Assembly (NCBI GenBank): GCA_963801505.1
Contig: CAWDEY010000002.1
Location: forward strand, 14,231 to 78,230
Length of the DNA stretch: 64,000 nt
Reading direction: 5' to 3'
Origin: an uncultured Nitrospira sp.
Lineage (GTDB): Bacteria > Nitrospirota > Thermodesulfovibrionia > Thermodesulfovibrionales > UBA6898
Within the stretch, counting starts at the first letter, position 1; every line of letters starts with the position of its first letter. The translations under genes were made by a program, and so were the position numbers. Shown here piece by piece: positions 4,954 through 52,974 of this stretch. A model generated the notes under the pieces. The model did no database searches, was not told the DNA's origin, and saw only the letters and a program-made list of their open reading frames with translations.

Positions 4954-6033
4954 ATGCTGGCTAAAATCCGCGATAAAGTACTCTCAGGGAAACGGCTCAC
5001 TGAAGCCGACTCCTTAGAGCTCTTTAAAAGCGATGACATTTTTATGCTCGCGGCCCTCGCATCGCATGTAGCTGAAAAGAAGAACGGGCGAAAGGCCTAC
5101 TTTGTCAGAAACCGCCATGTCAATCCAACCAATATCTGCGTCAACCGCTGCAGGTTCTGTGCATTCAGCAGGTCAAAAGGGCAGGAAGGCGCGTACGAGA
5201 TGACGGTCTCGGAGATTTTAAAAAAACTCCGGAGTGAAAAGCCAAAACTGAAGGTGCCCTACAGCGAACTCCATATCGTCGGGGGCCTGCACCCTGACTG
5301 GCCCTTCATCTATTACCTGGAACTGGTCTCTGCAATAAAAGAGGAATTTCCGAAACTCCATATAAAGGCCTTCACCGCTGTTGAGATCGACTATTTCTCA
5401 AAGATCAGCGGCCTAAGCCTTGAAGAAACACTCAAGTCCCTGAAACTCTGCGGCCTCGGATCTATGCCGGGAGGAGGCGCTGAGATATTCGCGTCCGGGA
5501 TCAGGAACAGACTTTGCCCTGAAAAGATATCAGGTGAGAGGTGGCTTGAGGTAATGGCAGTTGCCCACAAGGTAGGGCTCAGGACAAATGCAACAATGCT
5601 CTACGGCCATATAGAGTCATATAAAGACCGCGTAGACCACCTCATGAAACTCAGGAAGCTCCAGGACAAAACAGGCGGCTTCCAGGCGTTCATACCCCTT
5701 GCCTATCATCCGAAGAATACAGAGATACAAGGCAACTACACCTCGGGCCTCGATGACCTCAAGACAATAGCTATCAGCCGTCTTTATCTGGATAATTTCG
5801 ATCATATCAAGGCCTACTGGGTGATGCTCGGAGAGAAGATCTCCCAGCTTGCGCTTAAGTTCGGGGCTGACGACATCGACGGTACGATTATTGAGGAGAA
5901 GATCACACATTCCGCAGGCGGGTTGACAGGCGGGCAGCTGACGGCTGAACAATTGAGCGATATGATAAAGAAGGCAGGCAGGATCCCGATAGAAAGGGAT
6001 TCTTTCTACAGGAAAATAAGAAGGGCGGAATGA
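4954..6033 (+). CDS. mqnE: radical-SAM futalosine-pathway enzyme, aminofutalosine synthase (MqnE)-like
   Basis: CVNRCRFCAF CxxxCxxC motif, HIVGGLHPD, GGGAEIF, DGTI; MqnE/MqnC/CofH family architecture; stop overlaps the start of the paralogue (ATGA). Confidence 0.7.
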   Translation: MLAKIRDKVLSGKRLTEADSLELFKSDDIFMLAALASHVAEKKNGRKAYFVRNRHVNPTNICVNRCRFCAFSRSKGQEGAYEMTVSEILKKLRSEKPKLKVPYSELHIVGGLHPDWPFIYYLELVSAIKEEFPKLHIKAFTAVEIDYFSKISGLSLEETLKSLKLCGLGSMPGGGAEIFASGIRNRLCPEKISGERWLEVMAVAHKVGLRTNATMLYGHIESYKDRVDHLMKLRKLQDKTGGFQAFIPLAYHPKNTEIQGNYTSGLDDLKTIAISRLYLDNFDHIKAYWVMLGEKISQLALKFGADDIDGTIIEEKITHSAGGLTGGQLTAEQLSDMIKKAGRIPIERDSFYRKIRRAE

Positions 6034-7187
6034 CAAAGAATAAACAGAAAAAAAATACTGCTGAAAAACGAAAGCAGCCATGCGTCTCTAAATCAGACAG
6101 GATAACGAAGAAAGAGGCCCTGGCCATGCTCAAGGGCGCTGACCTGCTGGATCTCGGCCTGACAGCCGACAGCATGAGAAAGCGTCTTCACCCCAACAAG
6201 ACCGTCACATTCGTTGTTGACCGGAACATCAACTATACGAATGTCTGCATCAACAAATGCACCTTCTGCGCCTTCTGGAGGGATGAAGACGATTCTGACG
6301 CCTATATCCTTGACAGAGATGTCCTCTTTGAAAAGATAGAGGAGACCCTGGACCTGGGAGGCACACAGATACTGATACAGGGGGGACTGCATCCTGATCT
6401 GGATATCGACTGTTACATCGACCTCCTGAGGTCCATAAAGGAGAGGTTCGAGATAAACATCCATGGCTTTTCTCCTCCCGAGATATGCTATATCGCTGAT
6501 TCCTCAGACCTGACGATTCAGGAGACCTTGCGTATTCTGAGAGAGGCAGGTCTTGATTCAGTCCCTGGCGGGGGCGCGGAGATACTCTCTGACAGGGTCA
6601 GGGAGGTCCTGAGTCCGAGAAAGATAAAATCCTCCCGCTGGCTGAAAGTAATGGAGACAGCGCACAGGCTCGGCATGAGGACAACTGCCACAATGATGTT
6701 CGGGAGCATCGAGAGCCCTGAAGATATCATCACTCATCTGGATGCAATCAGGGAGCTCCAGGACAGGACAGGCGGGTTCACGGCCTTTATCCCATGGTCG
6801 TTCCAGCCGGGCAATACGGAATGGTAAATAGCTCTGGAAGCGGGGATTAGCAGCAAACCGACAAAAGCTAACCAGGACCCAGACCCCAGCCCCTCAGATC
6901 AGGCTACCGCTGTTGAGTATCTGAAGGTTCTGGCATTGTCGCGGATATACCTTGATAACATCGACAATATACAGGCCTCATGGGTCACGCAGGGTCTTAA
7001 GCTCGCGCAGGTGGCCCTAAGGTTCGGGGCTAATGACTTCGGTTCAACCATGATAGAGGAAAACGTTGTGGCCTCCACAGGGGTCAGCTTTAAAACCTCA
7101 AAGCACGAGATCATAAATGCTATCAGGTCGGCTGGTTTTATTCCTGCACAGAGAGATACTTACTATAATATTATTAAAAAATATTGA
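6030..7187 (+). pseudogene. mqnC: radical-SAM MqnC-like (cyclic dehypoxanthine futalosine synthase) gene interrupted by an in-frame TAA
   Basis: ORFs 6030-6827 and 6936-7187 are in the same frame; CINKCTFCAF motif; TAA at 6825-6827 sits at the edge of a repeat-derived insertion; the C-part resumes with ATAVEYLKVLALSRIYLDN. Confidence 0.7.
6825..6904 (+). repeat. heptamer-array element inside mqnC
   Basis: C-rich 7-nt periodic arm AACCAGG ACCCAGA CCCCAGC CCCTCAG ATCAGGC, preceded by an A-rich spacer and a G-rich segment GGAAGCGGGGATTAGC. Confidence 0.6.
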
Positions 7188-7196
7188 GGAGGGGTC

Positions 7197-8145
7197 ATGA
7201 CAGACACCGATAATATATACGATGTAATAATAGTTGGCGGAGGGCCTGCAGGATTGATCTGCTGCGCAATATGCTTCGAGGGCGAAACTCAAGACGATAG
7301 TGCTTGACAAGTCTGCTACAGCAGGGGCCCTGGCCTACACAAGCCACATAGAAAATTACCCCGGAGTTTTAGGCCCCATATCAGGGAAAGAACTCCTCGA
7401 CATATTCAGGAAGCAGGCACTGAACTTTGGCGCTGAGCATGTTATCGCGCAGGTCATAGGTGTAAGAATTGAATCCGAGGTCAAGGAAGTCTTTACAATG
7501 GACACCTCCTATAAAGGTAAAAGCATCATCATCGCAACCGGCGCGATGGGCAGAAAGCCGACTATAAAAGGCGAAGCGGAATTTCTTGGCAGGGGCGTCA
7601 GCTATTGCGCTGTCTGCGATGCAGCTTTTTATAAAGGCAGAGATGTCTGTGTCATCGGCAATTCAGAGGAAGCAGTAAAGGAAGCAGGATATCTGACCAA
7701 GTTCGCTGAAACAGTTTATCTTATATCACCGACAAAAGAGCTGAAGGTCGAACATCACCCTGCACTGGAGGCACCAAACCTCAAGGTCTTAACCGGCATG
7801 ACAGTGTCTGCTATAGAAGGGTCTGAGACTGTAGAGAAGATAAAGATTGCCGACCAGGAGAAAAAGGAGACGGAACTCCAGCTCTCAGGGGTATTCGTAT
7901 ATATGCATGGCAGCAAGCCGATCGTGGATTTTCTTTTGGGAACAATGTCACTCACAGAAGAAGAATGCCTCGATTCCAACCGTATGATGGAGACCCCGAC
8001 GCCGGGGGTCTTTGCAGCAGGCGACGTCACCTGCACAGAGGTCAGGCAGGTGGTGACTGCAGTTGCCAACGGCGCTGTCGCTGCCCTTTCCGCTGAAAAA
8101 TATCTGCACCACCGGAGCAGACACAAATACGACTGGGGGAAGTAG
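7197..8145 (+). pseudogene. thioredoxin-reductase-like flavoprotein with a +1 frame break near codon 20
   Basis: ATG 7197 gives MTDTDNIYDVIIVGGGPAGL (FAD GxGxxG). The frame then shifts by +1 around 7255-7260 to SAAQYASRAKLKTIVLDK, continuing into ORF 7300-8145. Redox CAVC present. Confidence 0.7.
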
Positions 8146-8897: not shown

Positions 8898-9102
8898 TCT
8901 GAATTGACGATCAAAGCTGCCTGACAATTTGACAGTATTTCCGGTTTTATGTTTTAATAATTTCGCTTTTAAAAATAGCCCGGCGAGGCTAAAAAGGCAA
9001 AGGAGTCAGCGTGAGCTGCATTCAAAACATCAAATCTCAACCAAACCTTCAAAACGCTGCAATTGCGTCCGCGCCAGACTATTTTCCCAACTCCGGAGTC
9101 AT

Positions 9103-9272
9103 AAAACTAAAAACGACAGTTCATTCACCACAGAGACACGGAGACTCTGAGAAAACAAAGGGTTGTAGAATAATTTTGTTTCGCCATCAAGGAGAAGGAA
9201 TCATTCAGGCTTTTTCTCTTACTTCTCAACTCTGTGCCTCAGTGTCTCTGCGGTTAACTGCTTTTTCAAGGA
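9103..9272. mobile_element. MITE-like element, family A copy 1 (CCACAGAG-type terminal inverted repeats)
   Basis: Left end CTAAAAACGACAGTTCATTCACCACAGAGACACGGAG and right end CTCAGTGTCTCTGCGGTTAACTGCTTTTTCAAGG are inverted. The core is about 85 percent identical, in reverse orientation, to 35034-35199. Confidence 0.8.
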
Positions 9273-9275
9273 TAA

Positions 9276-10719
<1,444 letters not shown>

Positions 10720-10723
<4 letters not shown>

Positions 10724-12041
10724 ACATATTGATAAAAAACGGACATCTGGTTGACCCCTCTCAGGGGATTGACGGCATATGCGATATACTTGTAGAAAAT
10801 GGAAAAATCAAGGAAGTGCAAAAGCGCGGAAGTGCGGAAGCGCGGAAGAAAAAGAATTCGGAATCCCAAAATCCCGGGCCAGCGGGCTATCAGATCATCG
10901 ACGCAACGGACATGCTCGTCCTTCCAGGCCTTGTTGATATGCATGTTCATTTGAGAGAGCCGGGCTTTGAATACAAGGAGACCATACAGACAGGCACAGA
11001 GGCTGCGGTAGCAGGTGGGATCACCTCGGTCTGCTGCATGCCAAATACAAACCCTGTAAATGACAACGCAAGCGTAACTGATTTCATACTGAAAAGGACA
11101 ATGGAGAGAGGATTTTGCGACGTATTCCCTGTAGGCGCCATCACAAAAGGCCAAAAAGGTGAGGAACTCGCTGAATTCGGTATGATGTACGAGGCAGGGT
11201 GTATCGCCTTTTCTGATGACGGCAGGCCTGTCACGGACAGTCTGATAATGCGCAGGGCACTTGAATATTCAAAGATATTCAACGTGCCGGTAATATCCCA
11301 TGCAGAGGACATCTCCCTTTCTGCCGGAGGGGTAATGAACGAAGGGCTCCTGTCGTTCAAACTCGGGCTCAAGGGCATCCCATCGCAGGCTGAAGAGATC
11401 ATGATCTGCCGTGACATCGCCCTTGCAGAACTTACAGGAGGCCGTCTGCATATAGCGCATGTCTCGACAAAAGGCTCTGTTGAACTGATACGGTCAGCCA
11501 AAAAGAGAGGTATCGCGGATGTCACTGCCGAGACCTGTCCTCATTATTTCAGCATCACAGAAGAGGCAGTCGAAGGATATAACACAAACGCCAAGGTAAA
11601 CCCGCCACTGAGAAGAAATGAGGACGTGGAGGCGATCAAGGAAGGGGCTCACGGACAACACCATAGATGTTATCGTCACAGACCACGCACCGCATCACAG
11701 GGATGAAAAACTCGGGGAATTCGATCTGGCGCCTTCAGGCATTTCAGGGTTTGAAACATCAATAGGCCTGAGCATGAAGCTCGTTGATGAAGGGGTCCTC
11801 ACTCTGAAGCAGCTGATAGAGAAGATGACCCTGAATCCCTCAAAGATCGTAGGCATAAGTAAAGGGACGCTTAGAGCAGGGAGCAGATGCAGACCTCGTA
11901 ATTCTGGATACACACAATGAATATACAGTTGATTCAGCCGGCTTCAGATCAAAGGGAAAGAACACTCCTTTTGAGGGATGGAAACTCAAGGCCAGGCCGG
12001 TTGCAACCATCTCAAAGGGAAGGATATATACATGGCAATAA
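10720..12041 (+). pseudogene. pyrC: dihydroorotase gene carrying two +1 frame breaks
   Basis: [14 protein letters not shown] in frame 1. [19 protein letters not shown] follows in the next frame after the GGGG run at 11644-11647. [15 protein letters not shown]...[10 protein letters not shown] follows in the third frame after about 11885. Stop overlaps the carA ATG. Confidence 0.85.
10824..10878 (+). repeat. bipartite short-tandem-repeat element inside pyrC
   Basis: GCGCGGAA GTGCGGAA GCGCGGAA, spacer GAAAAAG, then AATTCGG AATCCCA AAATCCC; encodes [15 protein letters not shown] within a loop preceding the PGLVD metal site. Confidence 0.7.
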
Positions 12042-13210
12042 AGGCGTTACTCGTTCTCGCAGACGGAATGGTCTTTGAAGGCAGTGGTTTCGGTGCAGAA
12101 GGTGAAACTATCGGGGAAGTGGTCTTTAACACCTCGATGACAGGCTACCAGGAGATACTGACAGACGCCTCCTATAAAGGCCAGATCGTCACCATGACCT
12201 GCACGCAGATAGGCAACTACGGCATTACGGAAGAAGACATCGAATCTGCGGGAGGCATAAAGGCAGAGGGTTTTATCGTAAAGGAGGCCTGTGATTTCCC
12301 GAGCAACTGGCGCTCGTCTTCAAGCCTGATTGGATACATGAAAAAATACAACGTCGTCGGCATTCAGGGCCTGGATACCAGGGCCTTGACTAAACATCTG
12401 AGAAACTGCGGGGCGCAGCCAGGGATCATCTCGACCATTGAGGCAGATCCTTTGAATCTTCTGAAAAAGGTCAGGGCCCATCCCGGGATATCCACCTTTG
12501 ATCTTGTCAAAGAAGTGACGACTGATAAGGTCTATCATTGGACAGAGGGTTGCTGGAAATGGGGACTTAACAATGGGATTGGGGATTCGGGATTGGAGAT
12601 TGGATTAAAAGATAAGACTAACCCCCAGCCCCCAATTCCTAATCCCTATAAAGTGGTTGTATATGACTTTGGTGTCAAGTTCAATATTTTGAGAAACCTT
12701 GTGACTGCGGGGTTCCACGTCACTGTTGTGCCTGCACAGACACCTGCAGAGGCTGTGCTTGAAATGCAATCTGACGGCATCCTGCTGAGCAACGGACCAG
12801 GTGACCCTGAAACAGTGACCTACGCGATAGAAAATACTAAAAAATTACTGGGGAGGAAGCCGATATTCGGCATCTGTCTCGGACATCAGATACTAGGGCT
12901 TGCCCTGGGTGGCAGGACGTACAAACTGAAATTCGGCCACCATGGCGGGAACCACCCTGTCAAGGACTTGTCTACCGGCAAAGTCGAGATAACATCGCAA
13001 AACCACAATTATTGTGTAGACATAAAAAGCCTGCAGGGCAAGGTCAGACTCACGCATACAAACCTCTATGACAACACAGAGGAAGGCATGCAGCATCTGG
13101 AACTCCCGGTCTTTTCAGTGCAGCATCATCCTGAGGCTGGGCCTGGACCAAATGATTCAACACATCTTTTTGGAAGGTTCAGGCAACTGATACAAAACGG
13201 TACATTTTGA
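12032..13210 (+). CDS. carA: carbamoyl-phosphate synthase small (glutaminase) subunit
   Basis: [12 protein letters not shown] start, IFGICLGHQ active-site Cys, HHPE; the ORF-track start at 11978 is an artefactual extension across the pyrC 3-prime end. Confidence 0.93.
12575..12646 (+). repeat. bipartite heptamer-array element inside carA (72 nt)
   Basis: GGGATTG GGGATTC GGGATTG GAGATTG ..., spacer AAAAGATAAGAC, then TAACCCC CAGCCCC CAATTCC TAATCCC; the second arm is roughly the reverse complement of the first. Confidence 0.85.
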
Positions 13211-14002: not shown

Positions 14003-17000
14003 TTGCCAAAGAGAGAAGATATTAAAAGCATCCTTATCATCGGCTCAGGTCCGATTATCATAGGACAGGCCTGTGAGTTTGATTACTCCGGAACGCAGTC
14101 ATGCAAGGCCCTGAGAGACGAAGGCTACAAGGTCATTCTGGTAAACTCCAATCCGGCAACTATCATGACGGACCCTGAGACCGCTGACGTCACTTACATC
14201 GAGCCGCTCAATGTCGAGATCCTGGAGTTGATCATCGAAAAGGAGCGTCCTGATGCAATACTGCCCACCATGGGCGGTCAGACAGCGCTGAACCTCACAG
14301 TCGAACTCGCTGAAAAAGGCATTCTCGAAAAATACAACGTTGAACTCATAGGGGCCAAACTCCCTGCGATCAAAAAGGCCGAGGACAGGGAGCTGTTCAA
14401 AAAAGCTATGGCGAAGATAGGACTGGATGTCCCCAAAAGCTCGGCAGTAACCAGCATGAAAGAGGGGCTTAAAGCTGTGGAGCATTTAGGGTTCCCCGCA
14501 ATACTCAGACCTGCTTTTACACTCGGTGGAACAGGCGGAGGCATAGCCTACAACATGGAAGAATACACGGAACTCCTAGATAAGGGGCTGAAGCTCAGCC
14601 CCGTAAGACAGGTCCTTGTAGAGGAATCAGCCCTGGGATGGAAAGAGTATGAACTGGAAGTCATGCGGGACACGAAAGACAATGTTGTTATCATATGTTC
14701 CATAGAGAATTTTGATCCCATGGGAGTGCACACAGGGGATTCAATAACCGTGGCACCGGCCCAGACACTGACTGACAAGGAATATCAGAGGATGAGAGAC
14801 GCCTCTGTCGCGATCATCCGCGAAATAGGCGTTGACACGGGAGGGTCGAACATACAGTTTGCGATCAATCCTAAAAACGGCCGCATGATCGTCATAGAAA
14901 TGAACCCGAGGGTCTCAAGGAGTTCCGCTCTTGCGTCAAAGGCAACAGGTTTCCCGATTGCCAAGATAGCCGCCAAACTCGCGGTAGGACTTACCCTCGA
15001 TGAGATAAAAAATGACATAACACGTGAAACACCTGCATCCTTTGAGCCTACGCTGGACTATGTGGTGACCAAGTTCCCGAGGTTCGCCTTTGAAAAATTT
15101 CCCGAGGCAGACCCTGTGCTGACCACCCAGATGAAGTCTGTAGGAGAGGCCATGTCCATAGGCAGGACCTTTAAGGAATCCCTGCAGAAGGCCCTCCGGA
15201 GCCTTGAGACCGGAAGTTATGGTTTTGAGGAAGTCGACGGCGACCCTGACAGGATAAAGACAAAGCTGAAGATCCCCGGCGCTGAACGGATATGGTATAT
15301 CGCCCAGGCCATGCGTATTGGCATGGATATAAATACAATACATGAATATACACAGATAGACCCGTGGTTCCTGGAAAATATAAAGCAGATACTTGATATG
15401 GAAGATAAGATCAGGGCGGAAGCCCGGAAAAGGGAAAGAGCAGAAGGTCAGAAGCAGAAAAACATCGGCCCTTTGGACTTCCGGTCTTCAGCACTTCAGA
15501 ACCTCAGCACTATTGTCCGTGAGGCCAAGGAATACGGGTTCTCTGACAGAAGGCTGGCACAACTGCTCGGCACCGCGGAAATGGATGTCAGGGGATTCAG
15601 GAAGAAACATGGCATAGTCCCGATATATAAGATCGTGGACACCTGCGCTGCGGAGTTCGAGGCCTTTACCCCCTATCTTTATTCGACCTATGAAAGACCG
15701 TTCTACAAAATACAGGAGTCAGAAGTCAGAAGTCAGAAGTCAGAAGAAAAAAACAACTCGGAACTCGGAACCCGGAACTCGGAACTATTTTTTGATTGCG
15801 AGGCAAACCCCACAGACAGGCAGAAGGTGATCATTCTGGGGTCAGGCCCAAACAGGATAGGACAGGGAGTTGAATTCGATTATTGCTGTGTCCACGCAGT
15901 ATTTGCCCTGAGAGAACTAGGATATGAGACCATAATGATCAACTGCAACCCCGAGACAGTAAGTACAGACTACGATACCTCGGACAGACTCTATTTTGAA
16001 CCGCTCACTATCGAAGACACACTGAATATCATCGAAAAAGAGAAACCTATCGGCGTGATAGTCCAGGTAGGAGGTCAGACTCCTCTGAAGCTGGCGGTGC
16101 CCCTTGAAAAGGAAGGCATCAGGATCCTCGGGACCTCCCCGGATTCCATAGACCGCGCTGAGGACAGGAAACGTTTCAAGCAACTCCTCCATAAACTTCA
16201 GCTGAGACAGCCTGAAAGCGATACAGCCATGTCCGTGGAGGAAGCTGTCTCGGCAGCCCACAAAATCGGTTATCCTGTAATGGTACGGCCTTCCTATGTG
16301 CTCGGAGGAAGGGCCATGGAGATCGTCTATGATGAAGAGTCTATACGCGATTATATGGAGCGAACTGTAAAAGGCGCTCCCAAGCACCCCATCCTTGTCG
16401 ACAAATATCTGGATGATGCGATAGAGGTGGATGTTGATGCCCTCTCTGACGGCACGGACGTGATAATCGGCGGGGTAATGGAACATATAGAAGAGGCAGG
16501 CATACATTCCGGGGATTCGGCCTGCTCGCTGCCCCCCTATTCCCTTAACAACGATATCATCGCGGAGATCAAGCGGCAGACCAGCGCCCTGGCGCTCGAG
16601 CTGGGAGTTATCGGTCTTATGAACATACAGTTTGCGGTAAAAAAAGACGAGATCTATATCCTTGAGGTCAATCCCCGGGCTTCCAGAACTGTCCCTTTTG
16701 TCAGCAAGGCCACCGGCGTGCCGCTGGCAAAGCTCGCGGCAAAGATAATGGTCGGCAAGACCCTTAAGGAACTCGGGATAACAGAGGAAAAGACAATATC
16801 ACATGTCGCAGTGAAAGAAGCTGTATTTCCCTTTGACAAATTTGCCGGCGTTGACTCCATACTCGGGCCTGAGATGAAGTCAACCGGAGAGGTCATGGGA
16901 ATAGATGAAGATTTTGGACGGGCCTTCGCCAAGGCCCAGGCCTCCTCAGACAATGTGCTTCCCATAACAGGAAAGATAGTCATCAGCATCAGAGACAAGG

Positions 17001-34264: not shown

Positions 34265-35006
34265 CAAGCGGCATTTTATATTGCCCTGGCGAGACCTTGT
34301 AACGTTCAAGCGGCATGAGCATAAAATCGTTCCAGTCATTGGGGAAAAGCTCCAGCGTGAGATGTCTCTGCCCGTTGACGATCTCACCAGAGAGCCTTGC
34401 GTATCCTTTACTTCCCTCAAAGGCAAGCGACTTGACTATTATCCTGGCCCCATCGACAGATATGCCGCCTTTGCCCTTCTCAAAAATGTCCGTCGGCAAC
34501 TCGAAGCCGGACACGGAAAGCCTTTTCCAGTTTATCTCGTCAGCCCTGACCTCGATATCTGCTTTTCTGCCTGACACTATAACTCTTCCGGAAACAGGCG
34601 CAGAGAAAGATACATTTGCCGAAGAGACAAACACAGCTGTATCAAATGGAACGTCCGTAAAGCTTACTTCTCCTTTAAGACTGCCGTCAAAGCCGGCACT
34701 GAGCGCGGCCGTTATCTCTTTTGAATGTATGTCTATACCTATCCGTCCGAGAAATAGCGGAAGAAGGCGAACGTCAAGTCTCACCTCATCCAGGACCAGC
34801 AGCTTTACAGCGTCATTTCCGGCAAGAACAGCATTAGTAAAACGGTATCCTGTCACAAAATTGCCATCTGCCTGCCCGGCACTCAATACCACTGCCTGCT
34901 GAGCATCGTTTATTTTCGAGATGAGCTGCTCCGGAGTGAGGAAAAAAAAGAGCGTAAGAAAGACCGACAGTATTGCACTCGCAAGAACAATTATGATTTT
35001 TCTCAT
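34257..35006 (-). CDS. gspN: type II secretion system protein N-like
   Basis: N-terminal TM anchor, about 250 aa, last gene of the gsp cluster after gspM; assignment is by position and architecture only. Confidence 0.5.
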   Translation of the reverse strand: MRKIIIVLASAILSVFLTLFFFLTPEQLISKINDAQQAVVLSAGQADGNFVTGYRFTNAVLAGNDAVKLLVLDEVRLDVRLLPLFLGRIGIDIHSKEITAALSAGFDGSLKGEVSFTDVPFDTAVFVSSANVSFSAPVSGRVIVSGRKADIEVRADEINWKRLSVSGFELPTDIFEKGKGGISVDGARIIVKSLAFEGSKGYARLSGEIVNGQRHLTLELFPNDWNDFMLMPLERYKVSPGQYKMPLEL

Positions 35007-35033
35007 ATCAAAAAATGCATAAACCTAGAGAAA

Positions 35034-35199
35034 GCAATTAACCACAGAGACACGGAGGCACAGAGTTTAAAAGCAAGAGAAAAGGCCTGAAAGAATCCTT
35101 CTCCCCGACGAAGAAACAAAATTATTCGACAACCCTCTGTTTCCTCAGTGTCTCTGTGCCTCTGTGGTAAATGAACTGTAGTTTTTAGGATGCACAAAA
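35034..35199. mobile_element. MITE-like element, family A copy 2, between gspM and gspN
   Basis: TTAACCACAGAGACACGGAGGCACAGAG ... CTCAGTGTCTCTGTGCCTCTGTGGTAAATGAACTGTAGTTTTTAGG; core homologous to 9103-9272. Confidence 0.8.
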
Positions 35200-35214
35200 T
35201 CTGCATTTTTTGGG

Positions 35215-35709
35215 TCATGTAATATGAGAAACGAGAAGGCTTATATTAAGGAGGCCCGGGTTTTCAAAACTGACTGTCATGGAACACTTTCTGACCTTCA
35301 TCAAAACTCCTGTATTGGATATCCGGTATATAAAGTTGACTGCCGTATTTATGTCTACTCCCTCGATCTTGAGCTCATAGTCGTCTGCCCTGAACCGGCC
35401 GTCCTCCCTGTGCGTAATAAAGTTTATTTTTTTCAGGCCCTTTGAGAGCCCGAATTCTGCCGCGGTCTTTTCGACCTCGGAGACAAAGTTCCTGTTCTTG
35501 CCCTCCACTGCCCTTGATTTGAACGCCTTTGTCTCTTCCGACATGGAAATAAGCGCGGCCCTGTTGCCGCTCATCTCGGCATAGACGGTCTCCATAAGAA
35601 GAAGCCTTTTTTGGGCATTGTTTACGGCTCCCTGAAGGACAACAACTGCAACAAACAACGCTGCAATAATTCCGGCAAAAACAAACAGTTTTTTCTTTTC
35701 CTTATTCAT
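35215..35709 (-). CDS. gspM: type II secretion system protein M-like
   Basis: 164 aa, single N-terminal TM helix, follows gspL with overlapping stop/start. Confidence 0.55.
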   Translation of the reverse strand: MNKEKKKLFVFAGIIAALFVAVVVLQGAVNNAQKRLLLMETVYAEMSGNRAALISMSEETKAFKSRAVEGKNRNFVSEVEKTAAEFGLSKGLKKINFITHREDGRFRADDYELKIEGVDINTAVNFIYRISNTGVLMKVRKCSMTVSFENPGLLNISLLVSHIT

Positions 35710-38114: not shown

Positions 38115-38498
38115 TCATTTCCTCATGTATTGAAGGAGTATTGCTTCATCCTTGCCTGAGCCGGCCCTTGAGGTCACCTTCTTCATATGATATTCCATGT
38201 CTTCCGTCTTTATCTCGTAATCTATTCCGTTTTTTGTGCCTTTAAGTTCTATAAGTTTACCGGTCCTGTAAAGGTAGAGGTCCTCCTTTGCCTGCAACAC
38301 CAGTTTGAGGCTGTCCTTCTTCCTGTCAAAAATATCGATATGGTATGAAAACGAAGTGAGCACCAGCAGGAATACCCCGCTTACAATAGCAAGCGCCACA
38401 AGGACCTCAATAAGGGTAAAGCCTCTGTGGGGCTCGGGGATTGGGGATTGGGGATTTGCACCGCATGAACTATGCGCCATTAACTTCTTGTTACTCAT
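38115..38498 (-). CDS. gspI: type II secretion minor pseudopilin (GspI-like) with repeat-expanded leader
   Basis: [17 protein letters not shown]; 127 aa; the leader contains ANPQSPIPEP, encoded by an AATCCCC heptamer array. Confidence 0.6.
   Translation of the reverse strand: MSNKKLMAHSSCGANPQSPIPEPHRGFTLIEVLVALAIVSGVFLLVLTSFSYHIDIFDRKKDSLKLVLQAKEDLYLYRTGKLIELKGTKNGIDYEIKTEDMEYHMKKVTSRAGSGKDEAILLQYMRK
38429..38456 (-). repeat. heptamer array (GGGGCTC GGGGATT x3 on the plus strand) in the gspI leader
   Basis: Four contiguous 7-nt units read directly from the sequence. Confidence 0.85.
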
Positions 38499-39073: not shown

Positions 39074-39589
39074 TCACTCCAACTCCCAGCTCTTTATGTC
39101 GGCGTCCTTGCCTTCTCCTTCCGGCTTTCCGTCTGCCCCATAGGAGATGATGTCAAAGTCGCCGTGTGTTCCAGGAGATATATAAATAAATGGATTTCCC
39201 CAGGAGTCCTTTGGTATTTTAGTCTTCTCCAGGTAACCGTCTTCTTTGTATTTTTTCGGTATTGGTTCTGTCTCCGGCTTTTTAACAAGGGCCTCGAGCC
39301 CCTGATCTGTCGTTGGATATAAACCGTTATCGAGCTTGTAGAGCTTCAGGGCTGTTTCAAGGTTCTTCATCTGCAGCTTTGACTCTGCTATTTTGGCATC
39401 GTCAGTACGACCAAGCATCTTCGGCGCCACCAGAGCGGCGAGTATGCCAAGAATGAATACCACGACAAGCACCTCAATAAGAGTAAAGCCCTTTGGGGAT
39501 TGGGGGTCAGGAATTGGGGGTTGGGGTCCGAAAAAACTCTCAACTCTCAACTCTAAACCCTCAACTTTCTGCAAACTGTTTATCCTCAT
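39074..39589 (-). CDS. gspG: type II secretion major pseudopilin GspG with repeat-expanded leader
   Basis: [25 protein letters not shown]...[20 protein letters not shown]...WGNPFIY is a classic GspG core; it is preceded by a 33-residue leader. Confidence 0.88.
39495..39570 (-). repeat. bipartite heptamer-array element in the gspG leader
   Basis: Plus strand: GGGGATT GGGGGTC AGGAATT GGGGGTT GGGGTCC, spacer GAAAAA, then ACTCTCA ACTCTCA ACTCTAA ACCCTCA ACTTTCT. Confidence 0.85.
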
Positions 39590-47626: not shown

Positions 47627-49954
47627 CTATGGATTTATGGTTAAAGTAAACGCCTGACTTGCGGATGCTCCTATGCTGTCTGTTGCCCTTACTGTAAACG
47701 TATAAGTGCCTGCCGTTGTCGGTGTCCCCGTAATATTTCCAGCTGTTCCACTAGTCGCAATTGATAATCCGGGTGGAAAAGTGCCGGTCATCGTAAATAA
47801 ATACAACCCGCCCGCGTAAGGCACTCCACCAGTTACCGGAATGGTTGCAGTGTATGCTGTCCCAACTGTTCCGGACAGCAATATGGGTGGACCGGTAAAG
47901 GTAATAGACGGGCTGGAAATGGTTATAGAAAACGGTTGAGTTACAGATGTTCCAACGCTATCTGTTGCTCTTACTGTAAACGAATAGGTACCTGGAGTTG
48001 TTGGTGTCCCTGAAATAATTCCACTAGTAGAACCTAGGGCTAACCCGGATGGAAGGACTCCGCCAGCCAAACTGAATGTATACGGAGGTACTCCTCCGGT
48101 AACAGTAAGGCTTGAAGTATATGCAGTCGACACTTGTCCAGCCGCCAATGTGGATGTCCCGCTAAAGGTCATTGGCGCTGCAGCCAAATTCACAGTAGTA
48201 GCAATAGTTGACTTTATCCCTCTTGGCGTCGTTACCGTAGCGCTGACAATACTGCTATTTACCGTACTTGCAGTGTTCGCAGGAACCTCTACAATAAAAT
48301 TGAACATAGAGGGTCCGCTAGATACCTTATCTATGAGAGGTGATTCAATCTGGGTCATCGTTACAGTACCGACAGATGCAGTTGCTGCTACGGTGGTCCC
48401 TGCTTCAAGCTCGCCCAGGTTATAATCACCATAAATGACCGCAAACGAACCACTGCCGCCTTTAGTTATACTTGATGGAGCAACTGCAAAAGCACCCGAG
48501 GGGACAAAGGCAGTTGAATAAAAAACAGGCTCTGTATCAGTGAATTGTAATTTTATGCTGGTCCATATCATCTTGCTGGTCTGACAGCCTGCAGCAGGGC
48601 AATTCGGGCCGTCCCACACGCCATTAGGGCCGTCATACTGGCCGTTGCCGTTGACATCAATGTACTCTTCAAAGAGTTCAGAGCTTGGAGATATTACCCC
48701 ATTACAATTTTTTTCCGTGCCGCTATTTCTGCAGCCGTCATCGTTTTTATCGATAAAAGGTTCTCCAAGGTCAGTGAAGGACTCTCCCAAATCATAATTG
48801 CCGTTTCCATTTGCATCATTAAAGGCCTCTTCACCCTGGACAGTCGCGAGCACTGTCAACCAGCCGTCTCTCGGATTAAAGGTGTGTCCGGATGTGTAGT
48901 AGGGCTCTGTTGGGGCCGGTCTCACATCAGCCGGAATAGGGGCCTGCGTCCTTAGAATTGATGTTGTAATCCCTCGTGCATCAGTGAGTCCGCTCCTGCC
49001 TATGGCCCCTGCCTCTGTATAGAAGGAGACCGAGGTCCCTGTCAACAGATCAAAGTTACCGAACCTGTCTGCAATAAAAGCGGTTTCAGTAGCCTCTAAT
49101 CCGGAAATCCTCAGACCCGGCAGATTAAACGTCGTAGTCGCGAGGTTGAAATGCTTTGCTGAAGGCAGGCCCCCGCCGATCGATATAGTTGCTGTTGAGG
49201 TCGATATCGGAGTCCCTGCTACAGTAGCTATTATTGTGACTGGACCTGAGACATTACCGCTATGTAGTGATATTGTCACCTGTCCGCCAGTTGTTACGCC
49301 GGAGGCCTGCGTTGGTGTATTGTCTATAGCATCGCCTATATATTCACCTCCGTCACCAGGCAATTTCCCGCCGCTGGGGCCGTTCATGGTAAAGTCTATT
49401 TGTGTGCCATCCGAGATATTGCCGCCGGTCACATCAGTGACGGAGAAAAGGACCTTGGAGACCTCTGTCTGGCCGGTGCCCCTTAGCCCTATGACCTGCG
49501 GTGTTGCCGAAACAAATTCTATGCTGGCTGCTCCTGCTGCTGCAATAGGTATGGAAACCGCTTGTGTTATATTGCCAGCAGTGGCGGTTATGATGGCTGT
49601 CCCTGGTATGGACTTCCCCGTAAACGTGGCGATCGCATTACCATTAAAAGTCTTTGACTGGGCTGTTATAGTTCCGAGACTGTTATCGTTCAGGGTAAAC
49701 CTGACTACGGTGCCGTCCGGCACATTCCCGGCTGTGATATCTTTGACTGTTGCTGTGATGCTGGAGGAGCCCTTGATTATCAACGCAGAGGGATTGGCAG
49801 TCAGCGTAATGCTGTTTGGGGCCCCGATTTCATCTCCTGAACCGCCATTAACATTAACAACATTAACGGGTGGCAGATCGCTGCTGCCGCTGCCTCCTCC
49901 TCCGCCGCATGCGTACAAAGCTATTAGAAGCAAGAATAAGAAATACCGTTTCAT
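47627..49954 (-). CDS. large surface lipoprotein with Big_1-type Ig-like domains, Asp/Asn/Gly-rich putative Ca-binding repeats and two C-terminal He_PIG-type Ig domains
   Basis: Lipobox LYAC followed by GGGGGSGSS. Repeated segments ITLTANPSALI...TATVKD..G..V.DGT.V.F. DANGNGNYD / DVNGNGQYD motifs. PPYTFSLAGGVLPSGL...GTPTTPGTYSFTVRATDS occurs twice. Confidence 0.75.
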   Translation of the reverse strand: MKRYFLFLLLIALYACGGGGGSGSSDLPPVNVVNVNGGSGDEIGAPNSITLTANPSALIIKGSSSITATVKDITAGNVPDGTVVRFTLNDNSLGTITAQSKTFNGNAIATFTGKSIPGTAIITATAGNITQAVSIPIAAAGAASIEFVSATPQVIGLRGTGQTEVSKVLFSVTDVTGGNISDGTQIDFTMNGPSGGKLPGDGGEYIGDAIDNTPTQASGVTTGGQVTISLHSGNVSGPVTIIATVAGTPISTSTATISIGGGLPSAKHFNLATTTFNLPGLRISGLEATETAFIADRFGNFDLLTGTSVSFYTEAGAIGRSGLTDARGITTSILRTQAPIPADVRPAPTEPYYTSGHTFNPRDGWLTVLATVQGEEAFNDANGNGNYDLGESFTDLGEPFIDKNDDGCRNSGTEKNCNGVISPSSELFEEYIDVNGNGQYDGPNGVWDGPNCPAAGCQTSKMIWTSIKLQFTDTEPVFYSTAFVPSGAFAVAPSSITKGGSGSFAVIYGDYNLGELEAGTTVAATASVGTVTMTQIESPLIDKVSSGPSMFNFIVEVPANTASTVNSSIVSATVTTPRGIKSTIATTVNLAAAPMTFSGTSTLAAGQVSTAYTSSLTVTGGVPPYTFSLAGGVLPSGLALGSTSGIISGTPTTPGTYSFTVRATDSVGTSVTQPFSITISSPSITFTGPPILLSGTVGTAYTATIPVTGGVPYAGGLYLFTMTGTFPPGLSIATSGTAGNITGTPTTAGTYTFTVRATDSIGASASQAFTLTINP

Positions 49955-50770: not shown

Positions 50771-52974
50771 TTAAAGCGGCCTGGTCACTATCGTAGGGGT
50801 TAAAAAGATGAGCATTTCCTTAATGTTAGGTCCTGTCACATTTTTTGTTTTAAACAGCCAGCCAAGACCGGGTATCTTGCTTAAAAGAGGCACCCCGTCT
50901 TCACTTTCAGTTACACTTGTTGTGTATATGCCACCCAATACCAGTGTCTCACCACTCTTGATAAGGGCATTGGTAGTCAGAGTTTCTTTGTATTGATAAC
51001 TGTATTGTTACCGGCAGTGCCGCTTTCGATGCTGTCGTCTGATGCAGTGACCTTTAGCTGGATATAGCCGTCAGGCGTGATCTTCGGAGTGACATCAAGG
51101 CTCAATGTGGCCTTTTTCTCCTCTGTTGACGGCACGCCTGTTGTACTTACTGTTTGAACAAAGAATGAACGTCCCTGCTGTATGTTGGCAGCTTCGTTGT
51201 CCATGGTTAAGATCCTCGGGTTTGATAAGGTCTTGGACTTGCCGATGGATTCAAGGGCGGAAAGGGACAGATTAACCTTTACGGTGCTGGCATTGCCTAC
51301 AGTAAAATCTAAGGCGCCCCCGGTATTTGCAGTTGCTGGTGCCTGCTGCTACAGTCGGGGTATTTACTGAAAAGTTACCGCCAAGCGTATTCGGATAAGA
51401 CGGGACGTGCAAATGACCCGCCCCATCTTATCCCCAATGATTCGCTATAATTGGTCGCAACTTCAACTATCTTTGCCTCTATCATCACCTGAGGCTTTGG
51501 AACATCCATTATAGTCACAAGCTCTTTTATTTTATCTATACTCTTCTGTGTGTCCTTTAAAATAAGCGTGTTCATCCTCGTGTCTATTGCTATGCTGCCC
51601 CGCGAAGTAAGCAGTTTGCCGCTATTTACAGCAGCTGTTGATGTCAGTCGGCAGACGCATAGTTGACGCGTACTATCTCCTGCTCAAGGTCTTCTGTATT
51701 TTTCTCCTTTCTCCTTTGCTTTTTGCTTTTCCTCGGACATCCTGGTCAACACATTGGTCGGTGCAATCCAAAGGATATTGCCTTCAATGGATTTGGACAG
51801 GGGTGGTTTATTGAGTATTGAGTATTATATCCAACGCCTGGTCCCATGGCACATTTAAAAGCTTAATGGTAACATTTCCCTTTACAGCCGGATGCAGCAC
51901 CAGATTGTAGCCGCTGACATCTGCCAGGAGTCTGAATATGGGCCTGACATCCGCATCTTGAAAATCAAGAGATATTTTCTTCCCTGTATATTCGCCTTCA
52001 ATCAGTTTTTCCGGTTCCTGCACAGGCTGGACCGGCTTTGCAGGTACCTCTGCAGCAGTTGCTGCAACAACTGTTTTTTCGGATTTATTATGGGCCTGAG
52101 ATACTGATGTCTCCTTAGCCAGCAGTGAAATCTCAATGGAATTCCCTGTGGCAATGACGTCAAAATTAGTTTTCTGTTTCAGGTCCAGTACCAGCCTCAG
52201 CTTACCCTTGTGTTTTCCGGCCCTTATACCCTTTAAGGGCGAGATTACACTGTCCGGCAAAGTGGTATTCAATGTTACCTCAGGTATATCTATTACAATT
52301 CTTTCATTTACCGGAAAAACGTTAGGTATTATAGTGCCATTTCCTGTTATTAATACTTTTACAGCATCTGCAGTTTTTTTGATTTCTACTCCAGCGATCT
52401 CGGTTGCTTTAGGCACAGGCTGAATATTCTCTTCAACTGCTTTTAATGACATTAGCCGGGGGTTCAGTACTAGCCAAAGCAGGCCCATACGGACTTGCCT
52501 TCAGGGTCTTTAGGTTCCGGCAAAGCAACAGGCTCTTTAGGCTCTGACAAAACAACAGGCTCCTCTTTCTTAATTGAAAGCACGAGGGTATTGTCGTTGT
52601 AAGAAGGAGACACCGCAGACGGGAGTTTGCAGTATAATATCAATTTTAGCCACTGCATCCGGTGTATTGATCTGTTGTGGTATTATCTCTGTTATGCCGG
52701 ATTTATCTGAGACAATCTTGCTTGTGAATTTACCTACTGACATCCCGGGAATTTCTACCGTAACTTTATACGGATCATTTGAATTATATACCGTATAAAT
52801 AAAATTCTTATTACTCTTGATCACTACATCAGCATCCTCTATCGTAATATCAGTAATAACTGCTATTTCTTCTCCTGAAGATGCTTCTTTCTTTCCGGAT
52901 GTTGTAGCACAGCCAAGCAAAAGCATTAACCCCACAATTAATAAACAGAGCTTTAACATTTTATTATTTTTCAT
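50771..52974 (-). pseudogene. pilQ: type IV pilus secretin pilQ, heavily fragmented
   Basis: Lipoprotein signal, two AMIN-like domains, N0/N1 and secretin-domain peptides (LGIRWGG, NPRILTMDNEAANIQQG, VPLLSKIPGLGWLFK), spread over about 8 frame changes and stops. Confidence 0.85.

Follow-up and report, generated by a model that had tools for sequence, protein, structure and literature searches.

We analysed a stretch of 64,000 nucleotides (the window) from an uncultured Nitrospira sp. (assembly GCA_963801505.1, contig CAWDEY010000002.1, positions 14,231 to 78,230 of the forward strand), in which mqnC, the gene for the menaquinone-biosynthesis enzyme cyclic dehypoxanthinyl futalosine synthase, is interrupted by an in-frame TAA codon at 6825-6827. 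The stop is very probably a sequencing or assembly error that lies in a real linker. Judged against its relatives this linker is a genuine heptamer-array element, and the best explanation of the sequence is that mqnC here codes for a normal single-polypeptide radical-SAM enzyme.

The mqnC gene and its linker

The gene spans 6030-7187 on the plus strand and is complete apart from the one TAA. Translation of this region shows the codon to be the sole break between two open reading frames (ORFs) in the same frame, 6030-6827 and 6936-7187. A first-pass annotation, made from the sequence alone, had described the same arrangement: we find no other stop between the two ORFs and obtain the same read-through translation. 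In NCBIfam the read-through product matches TIGR03699 (MqnC) over profile positions 2-342 with 496 bits, where the curated cut-off is 428.1. Taken alone, both pieces fall below this cut-off, the first with 361.6 bits (positions 2-243) and the second with 137.5 bits (positions 249-342). The latter match corresponds to the C-terminal CofH_C-type domain (6903-7187, plus strand; Pfam PF19288 in relatives), where homology resumes at ATAVEYLKVLALSRIYLDN. Between the two halves there are about 19 codons more than in TIGR03699; the connector has 7 residues in the solved paralogue MqnE (6XI9) and 30 in the intact relative P0001.

Directly upstream, mqnE (aminofutalosine synthase; 4954-6033, plus strand) overlaps the start of mqnC by 4 nt. 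It is intact, as previously stated, and matches TIGR03700 over positions 1-351 of 351 with 517.8 bits against a cut-off of 434.55. The gene order mqnE-mqnC-trxB-like-pyrR-pyrB is the same in relatives, and the genes are intact there.

A homologue search in a space of 5.8 billion proteins returned near relatives of 380-393 aa, with 82-89% identity, that span the full read-through product, and to intact relatives of 386-387 aa the window MqnC is 84-89% identical. The radical-SAM cysteines C73/C77/C80 and every other invariant column of a 31-sequence alignment are present, although this alignment includes the window, so that invariant columns are kept in it by definition. It had been proposed as an alternative that MqnC orthologues generally end at the position of the stop. 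This is not the case: of 80 species representatives, 77 have mqnC as one uninterrupted ORF, and the three exceptions are L006 and L008 (MFD long-read) and L082 (k119 co-assembly).

The linker itself occupies 81 nt (6822-6902, plus strand) and has the form of a degenerate paired heptamer-array element. Its 5' arm at about 6823-6855 reads GGTAAAT AGCTC TGGAAGC GGGGATT AGCAGCA, where the division into units is our own reading; an A-rich spacer follows at about 6856-6869, and the 3' arm at 6870-6897 reads AACCAGG ACCCAGA CCCCAGC CCCTCAG. The first-pass annotation had thus described the segment accurately, with its G-rich part, its A-rich spacer and its C-rich arm of 7-nt period. The insert is lineage-specific, and it is the degenerate 5' arm that contains the stop. 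Within the window alone the 7-nt periodicity is weak: Tandem Repeats Finder (TRF) reports nothing in the linker at score 30, and with a looser setting 2.9 copies of CCCAGAC at 6878-6898 with a score of 26. The periodicity becomes convincing because relatives carry clean heptamer arrays at the same site, for instance (AAACCCC)x3.9 and (GTTCAAA)x4.6 by TRF. The window linker belongs, in degenerate form, to the (ATTGGGG)n...(AAACCCC)n type found in L001-L003.

At this point of mqnC every aligned relative has a linker of variable length, rich in K, S, P and Q. To study it at the DNA level we took the linker from 71 loci and computed its autocorrelation. In most of the 71, an A-rich spacer separates a 5' from a 3' array, each of about four units of 7 nt (8 nt in some); the purine-rich arm comes first and the second array is partly complementary to it. 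The units are wholly different between lineages, as in (GGGGCAA)4...(ACTCAAA)4, (AAGTCAA)4...(CTTGTCA)4 and (GCGTTCA)4...(AACGCCY)4. By our own count from the table, the strongest autocorrelation is at lag 7 in about 40 of the loci and at lag 8 in 8 of them. The length of the linker is a multiple of 3 in 69 of the 71, and the exceptions are the frameshifted L006 and L082. In L082 the linker (5848-5900) is 71 nt long, one 7-nt unit from a multiple of 3, which makes it the sole candidate for a whole-unit slip. The farthest relatives have linkers of 21-30 nt and no arrays.

A recent or mobile insertion unique to this genome was considered and rejected, as the linker has homologous counterparts in P0001-P0004 and L008 and an element is present at the site in most of the 71 loci. 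No second copy of the linker segment exists in the window. At the RNA level the fold at the mqnC junction is no better than that of shuffled sequences (z = +1.58), and there are no Rfam families or tRNAs in the window. In an AlphaFold2 model of P0001 the predicted local distance difference test score (pLDDT) of the linker is about 30-36, but the mean is 59 and the C-terminal domain is low as well, so this is weak support for disorder. Taken together, we propose that the connector between the barrel and the C-terminal domain would have been held by an in-frame paired-array element since before the clade diversified, and that the TAA would be no part of its design.

Origin of the stop codon

The mqnC junction was aligned with MAFFT to the DNA of three intact relatives (L001-L003). 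Over the lesion (6818-6837, plus strand) the window reads GGAATGGTAAATAGCTCTGG. One base is missing between 6821 and 6822, where the window has GAA|TGG and the three intact relatives have GA[A/G][C/T]TGG; this -1 gap is reproduced when further relatives are added to the alignment. It is followed at 6822-6832 by a conserved block, TGGTAAATAG(C), that is identical to L002 and near-identical to L001 and L003 but displaced by 1 nt from the upstream frame. With the reading of this block displaced by one position, GTA AAT turns into TGG TAA and the stop at 6825-6827 is exposed.

The change that restores the frame lies at 6832-6846 and can be placed in two ways. It is either a -2 gap, AGC|TCT at 6832/6833 against AGTAATT, or, by our own reading of the +2 frame (MVNSSGSG against LANSNLGLG), a lost T (TT to T) with a lost codon and an extra G (GGG to GGGG) in the GGGG at 6842-6845. 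The alternative placement gives ELVNSSGSGISSKP and is about as parsimonious against L002, less so against L001. Frame-intact versions of the junction would contain GGAA[C/T]TGG and AGCnnTCTGG, or TTGG ... GCGGGATT. Since the gaps of -1 and -2 sum to -3, mqnC is in frame downstream of them. In our reading of the alignment the two gaps bracket the first unit of the 5' arm, with the second gap inside the second unit.

It had been suggested that the insertion itself brought in the stop codon. However, P0001-P0004 hold the homologous linker, NTELANSNLGLGISSKPKKTKPQTPTPKPSYQATAVEYLK, as an open reading frame without a stop, and the TAA results from the -1 and -2 gaps around the conserved 10-nt block. 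A point mutation to a stop is ruled out by the same DNA alignment, which has two gaps around a shifted conserved block. Under either gap placement the stop thus appears to be a by-product of small indels and not cargo of the insert. The paired gaps are the only lesion in mqnC; the identity of 84-89% is found with all invariant columns kept, and the relaxed constraint of a pseudogene is not seen.

In the scenario that we consider very probable, the deposited sequence would lack one base just before the first unit of the element and two bases in the second unit. The ten conserved bases in between would then be read one position off (GTA AAT as TGG TAA), after which the frame would be restored. 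The cause would be indel errors in the consensus of a metagenome assembled from long reads of Nanopore type, where short tandem repeats are especially prone to error. In the living cell mqnC is probably uninterrupted and reads roughly ...NTE-L-V-N-S-x-L-E-A-G-ISSKPTKANQDPDPSPSDQ-ATAVEY...

Frame lesions are found in three more genes of the window. Directly downstream of mqnC, a gene for a thioredoxin-reductase-like flavoprotein (7197-8145, plus strand) has a +1 insertion at about 7257-7259. Compared with six relatives it has one surplus base, and residues 30-324 of the L007 protein align from 7258 in another frame; in L003 and L004 the gene is intact with 315 aa. In pyrC (dihydroorotase; 10720-12041, plus strand) there are two +1 changes, one in or near the GGGG at 11644-11647 and one in the AGAG at 11873-11876. 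The intact L007 PyrC protein aligns to the window in three successive frames, and removal of one base at each site brings back conserved motifs. The true stop of pyrC at 12039-12041 overlaps the start of carA at 12032. A gene for a pilQ-type secretin (50771-52488, minus strand) is broken into at least four pieces: AMIN, N0 and STN at 51808-52488, Secretin_N 42-69 at 51375-51575, Secretin 20-102 at 50977-51204 and Secretin 120-168 at 50771-50938. All remaining ORFs of the window with a full-length NCBIfam family match are matched end to end, and the lesions are few, small and grouped in three zones.

To obtain a rate of such lesions, frame changes and internal stops were counted across the mqnE-carB block, using the proteins of L007, a short-read metagenome-assembled genome (MAG), as probes. 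The window has 3.6 frame-disrupting events per 10 kb, ten long-read MAGs from MFD have 5.4, and 70 other assemblies have 0.16. Contig names in the style of Flye are found in the genomes nearest to the window, which are MFD MAGs. For the MFD-LR catalogue, only Nanopore reads were used, assembled with Flye and polished in one round with Medaka against indel errors (PMC12313526). Other broken MqnC proteins of the same 90% clusters are P0125, which ends with NTEC before a stop, and P0124, which ends with NTEIKRGSAD before a stop. They lie on ENA contigs with Flye-type names (contig_92815 and contig_102143), where the neighbouring genes are shredded too. Many further genes, among them mqnE, the trxB-like gene, carA and carB, are split in L005, L006 and L008. 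At the end of pyrC in L008, an MFD long-read MAG, an extra G at about 15740-15750 (GGAAACTGCAC) fuses pyrC and carA into one ORF of 587 aa.

The window thus resembles Nanopore-only MAGs made with Flye and Medaka (MFD-LR, PMC12313526) in its locally clustered gains and losses of 1-2 nt that split conserved genes, and in a lesion rate comparable to that of sister-species MFD long-read MAGs. It differs in that only one of its five mapped indels, that in the G run of pyrC, can be placed in a homopolymer, and that ambiguously; further, its technology is inferred. From its error signature we take the window to come from a long-read assembly, and the gaps in mqnC to be errors rather than mutations. 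A link between the indels and GATC sites was also considered and dropped, as the gaps can be placed in more than one way and the G run is the better match for the pyrC indel.

Several observations weigh against an assembly error. It is only the error signature that speaks for the long-read origin of the window. Gaps of -1 and -2 do not have the classic form of homopolymer errors, except under the alternative placement (TT to T, GGG to GGGG), and two gaps that total exactly -3 within 12 nt are a mild coincidence under any model. The frameshifted linker of L082 comes from a k119 co-assembly of short-read style and misses a multiple of 3 by one 7-nt unit, so that real slippage variants may exist. 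Finally, protein look-ups, a metagenome scan and homologue searches found no independent sequence of the same species across the mqnC junction. The exact-protein look-ups gave only a Logan contig of 1,965 nt that ends before the junction, the metagenome pattern scan for the window allele recovered only the contig of P0001, and the homologue search with the segment after the stop returned nothing above 90% identity. L086 and L087 were rejected as the same species, since a DNA identity of about 87% places them in other species. The Logan contig comes from an independent run, ERR11594405, and encodes a protein identical to the window MqnE, together with residues 1-92 of the following gene, which by its position is mqnC; because of this identity the organism of the window appears to have been sequenced in that run.

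The first-pass annotation had left three options, namely a pseudogene, a two-piece enzyme restarting at TTG 6936 and a sequencing error, and it is the last that is best supported. That the two deletions are real, and represent a very recent loss-of-function allele of the strain or of a dominant sub-population created by misalignment in the repeat-rich 5' arm, we regard as unlikely. Such an origin would agree with the intrinsic tendency of non-triplet tandem repeats to slip, with the 71-nt linker of L082 in a short-read-style assembly, one unit off a multiple of 3, and with the concentration of breaks in the linker, which makes up about 7% of the gene yet is the site of three of the four broken mqnC copies among 81 genomes. 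However, the mqnC lesion is not a whole-unit (7-nt) slip, and mqnC has no relaxed constraint elsewhere. The allele would have to coexist with three more conserved genes in 64 kb, including pyrC of de novo pyrimidine synthesis, that are also freshly broken with no other decay. The lesion rate tracks assembly technology, and a second, frame-restoring deletion would have no selective value once a stop lies between the two.

A natural fission of MqnC at the linker, into a radical-SAM barrel of 265 aa and a separately initiated C-terminal domain, is highly improbable. The break does coincide exactly with the connector between the domains, the two halves show good conservation, and in several assemblies pieces end or start near the linker. 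But a start at TTG 6936 loses five columns that are invariant in the 31 sequences (A294, Y297, L298, L301 and A302), and from the TAA to this TTG there is no in-frame ATG, GTG or TTG. Further, the gene is a single ORF in 77 of the 80 species representatives, and the other split copies stand on contigs with many shredded genes. Recoding, by read-through of the TAA or by programmed frameshifting that yields a full-length MqnC from the deposited sequence, has an even smaller, almost negligible probability in our estimate. A case has been made (PMC7918605) that bacterial in-frame stops with conserved flanks are read through, and the read-through protein would differ from relatives by only about four residues. 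However, no relative has a stop or shift at this site, there is neither a predicted RNA structure (the z value above) nor an Rfam match, and in relatives the block that is out of frame here is conserved within the reading frame, as coding sequence, which speaks for a lesion and against a signal.

Heptamer arrays in the window and in related genomes

A census of tandem arrays with at least three copies and a TRF score of at least 36 was made over 1.27 Mb of these Nitrospirota genomes. Period 7 dominates with 163 arrays; periods 6, 8 and 9 account for 3, 32 and 5 arrays, and an order-3 Markov control gave 0-2. Four to five copies are present in 140 of 170 arrays. The arrays are as frequent inside long ORFs (123 of 170, 72%) as random windows are by the same crude test (73%). 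A run of G3 or C3 occurs in the unit of only 37 of the 170, so that G-quadruplex formation was rejected as a general rationale; the mqnC/carA element of the window's clade uses a GGGGATT-type unit. Among 169 arrays there are 92 distinct canonical units, units differ at orthologous sites, and only some, such as GGGGATT, recur at several loci within one genome. Single-linkage clustering of the units proved uninformative, as a giant component is expected by chance when rotations, reverse complements and one mismatch are allowed.

By TRF pairing about a third of the arrays (106 of 291) are in the paired form. Paired elements are intragenic in 37 of 53 cases, and in 33 of these 37 the coding strand has the purine-rich arm ahead of the other. 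As placed, all 37 are free of stops, whereas after inversion just 11 would have any open frame; in paired copies outside long ORFs, stop-free arms are rare. Much of the bias in arm orientation follows from the avoidance of stops.

The arms pair better with their cognate partner (-14.4 kcal/mol) than with non-cognate arms (-9.2 kcal/mol), a value reached in none of 5000 permutations. The complementarity is uneven and missing in many elements, for instance in L079 (0.0 kcal/mol) and L011 (-3.6 kcal/mol). The antisense arms pair at least as well as the sense arms (-17.7 against -14.4 kcal/mol), which excludes a structure specific to the sense mRNA. Therefore, the symmetry of the arms is a property at the DNA level.

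In the window, three other genes carry repeat elements in frame, all on the plus strand. In carA the element at 12575-12648 consists of (GGGATTG)x4.1, a spacer and (CCCTAAT)x2.7 by TRF. Its peptide nearly equals the mqnC linker of P0002 (NSNSGLEISSKPKKTKPQTPNPKPSY), a likeness that suggests copying between loci. The carB element at 15713-15786 consists of (CAGAAGT)x4.9, AAAAAAAC and (AACTCGG)x4.6, with TRF scores of 61 and 57. At the same site L005 and L007 have (TCAAAGT)/(AACATAG), that is, the pairs of units differ between species. The element in pyrC (10812-10860) has 8-nt units, GCGGAAGY, followed by an A-rich spacer and AATTCGGAATCCC, and is reported by TRF as period 16 x 2.3.

Further GGGGATT-type arrays stand at 38428-38456 and 39493-39566, beside prepilin-type GFTLIEV motifs on the minus strand. 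They have common flanking sequence (81% over 59 nt), and the array at 39.5 kb, instead of being truly intergenic, may be situated within a pseudopilin leader or a short way upstream of one. The window also holds a second kind of dispersed repeat, of 70-165 nt and 80-90% identity, in either orientation and mostly between genes. Its pairs are 9107-9271/35024-35188, 23623-23753/29142-29275, 4244-4363/28853-28994, 27283-27404/34152-34262 and 32655-32731/45307-45384. Some of these repeats hold CTCTGTG octamer arrays and yield spurious similar ORFs at 9011-9286 and 35003-35218. Finally, a direct repeat at 47637-47741/47919-48023 (80% over 105 nt) lies inside an ORF of 775 aa (47627-49954) that has no NCBIfam match.

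Relation to known repeats and consequences

Heptameric simple sequence repeats are over-represented in many bacteria, as reported by Rehm et al. 2015 (PMC4692102). The same source describes arrays of GGGAATC in Xanthomonas and of GGGGA(T/C)T in Nostoc PCC 7120, with a preference for four units, strong variation between close relatives and occasional inverted pairs; they are described there as avoiding coding regions. It also cites three tandem heptanucleotides in Calothrix PCC 7601, which the cyanobacterial literature calls short tandemly repeated repetitive (STRR) sequences. The Nitrospirota arrays are similar in having tandem units of 7 nt in about four copies, some inverted pairs and wide variation in length and sequence at orthologous sites of close relatives, and a GGGGATT unit is present in the window. 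In contrast to the Xanthomonas and Nostoc repeats they are freely intragenic, being in frame in mqnC, carA, carB and pyrC. They are often two-armed, with a purine-rich arm, an A-rich spacer and a second arm, as in most mqnC linkers. They also belong to a different phylum, and their units are mostly without G-quadruplex potential. Our literature search found no paper that joins heptanucleotide tandem repeats with Nitrospirae or Thermodesulfovibrio, and the class seems to be undescribed for Nitrospirota.

In-frame palindromic elements in metabolic genes are known from the Rickettsia palindromic element (RPE) and from intragenic miniature inverted-repeat transposable elements (reviewed in PMC10969869). 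Like the RPE, the Nitrospirota elements are short and repeated, have a palindromic symmetry, though an uneven one, and lie in frame in unrelated metabolic genes, where they add a tolerated peptide segment. In-frame insertion of this kind is seen in mqnC, carA, carB and pyrC of the window and in 37 intragenic paired elements overall. However, the RPE is about 150 bp long with a conserved family sequence and peptide, whereas the Nitrospirota elements are 50-100 nt long, their heptamer units vary by locus and lineage without a family consensus, and many copies have no complementarity.

With phase-variable contingency loci the arrays share a non-triplet unit inside an ORF, whose gain or loss by one unit shifts the frame. 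They differ from such loci in that the tracts are short (4-5 units), the genes belong to core metabolism and not to surface or restriction functions, and the size of the window's lesion does not correspond to one unit. The L082 linker of 71 nt is the sole hint of a change in unit number. Intragenic Borg repeats are generally built of units whose length is divisible by 3, whereas the Nitrospirota arrays have units of 7 nt and keep to a multiple of 3 in their total length alone. A resemblance to Borg proteins (PMC9879509) lies in fast-evolving tandem repeats inside ORFs that add flexible segments to proteins.

The arrays may grow and become homogenised through slipped-strand mispairing. Inside genes they would survive only in flexible connectors that tolerate any hydrophilic peptide, and only with a total length that is a multiple of 3 and an orientation that avoids stops in all three registers. 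Since 7 is one more than a multiple of 3, the frame changes from each unit to the next, through all three, and a slip of one unit throws the downstream domain off frame. The concentration of breaks in the mqnC linker would be explained by this shift of frame together with the difficulty of calling short repeats from noisy reads or mixed strains.

A bolder idea is that paired heptamer arrays are undescribed self-propagating or slippage-driven intragenic elements of Thermodesulfovibrionia-like Nitrospirota, and that the breaks in the linker are in part real variants. We consider this quite doubtful, somewhat more so than a real loss of mqnC in this strain. If true, heptamer arrays would make core genes such as mqnC intrinsically frameshift-prone, and the breaks in the window, L006, L082, P0125 and P0124 would in part be population variants and not assembly noise alone. 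Menaquinone biosynthesis would then have a contingency-like on/off switch, or would tolerate a split.

In practice, heptamer tracts would be predictable weak points for long-read consensus and co-assembly. The mqnC gene should not be scored as lost or split, nor the loss of menaquinone synthesis be deduced, before the reads are checked. The same caution in annotation applies to the trxB-like gene, pyrC and pilQ on this contig and to many genes in the Nanopore-only MAGs of the clade.

For the biology of these Nitrospirota, the arrays indicate that non-triplet repeats can be tolerated in frame in essential enzymes, where the constraint on length applies to the total alone, which has to be divisible by three, and the avoidance of stops selects the orientation. 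They would extend the little-studied heptamer repeats of bacteria from intergenic DNA into coding sequence, and may offer a natural example of non-triplet repeats that create and remodel disordered protein linkers.

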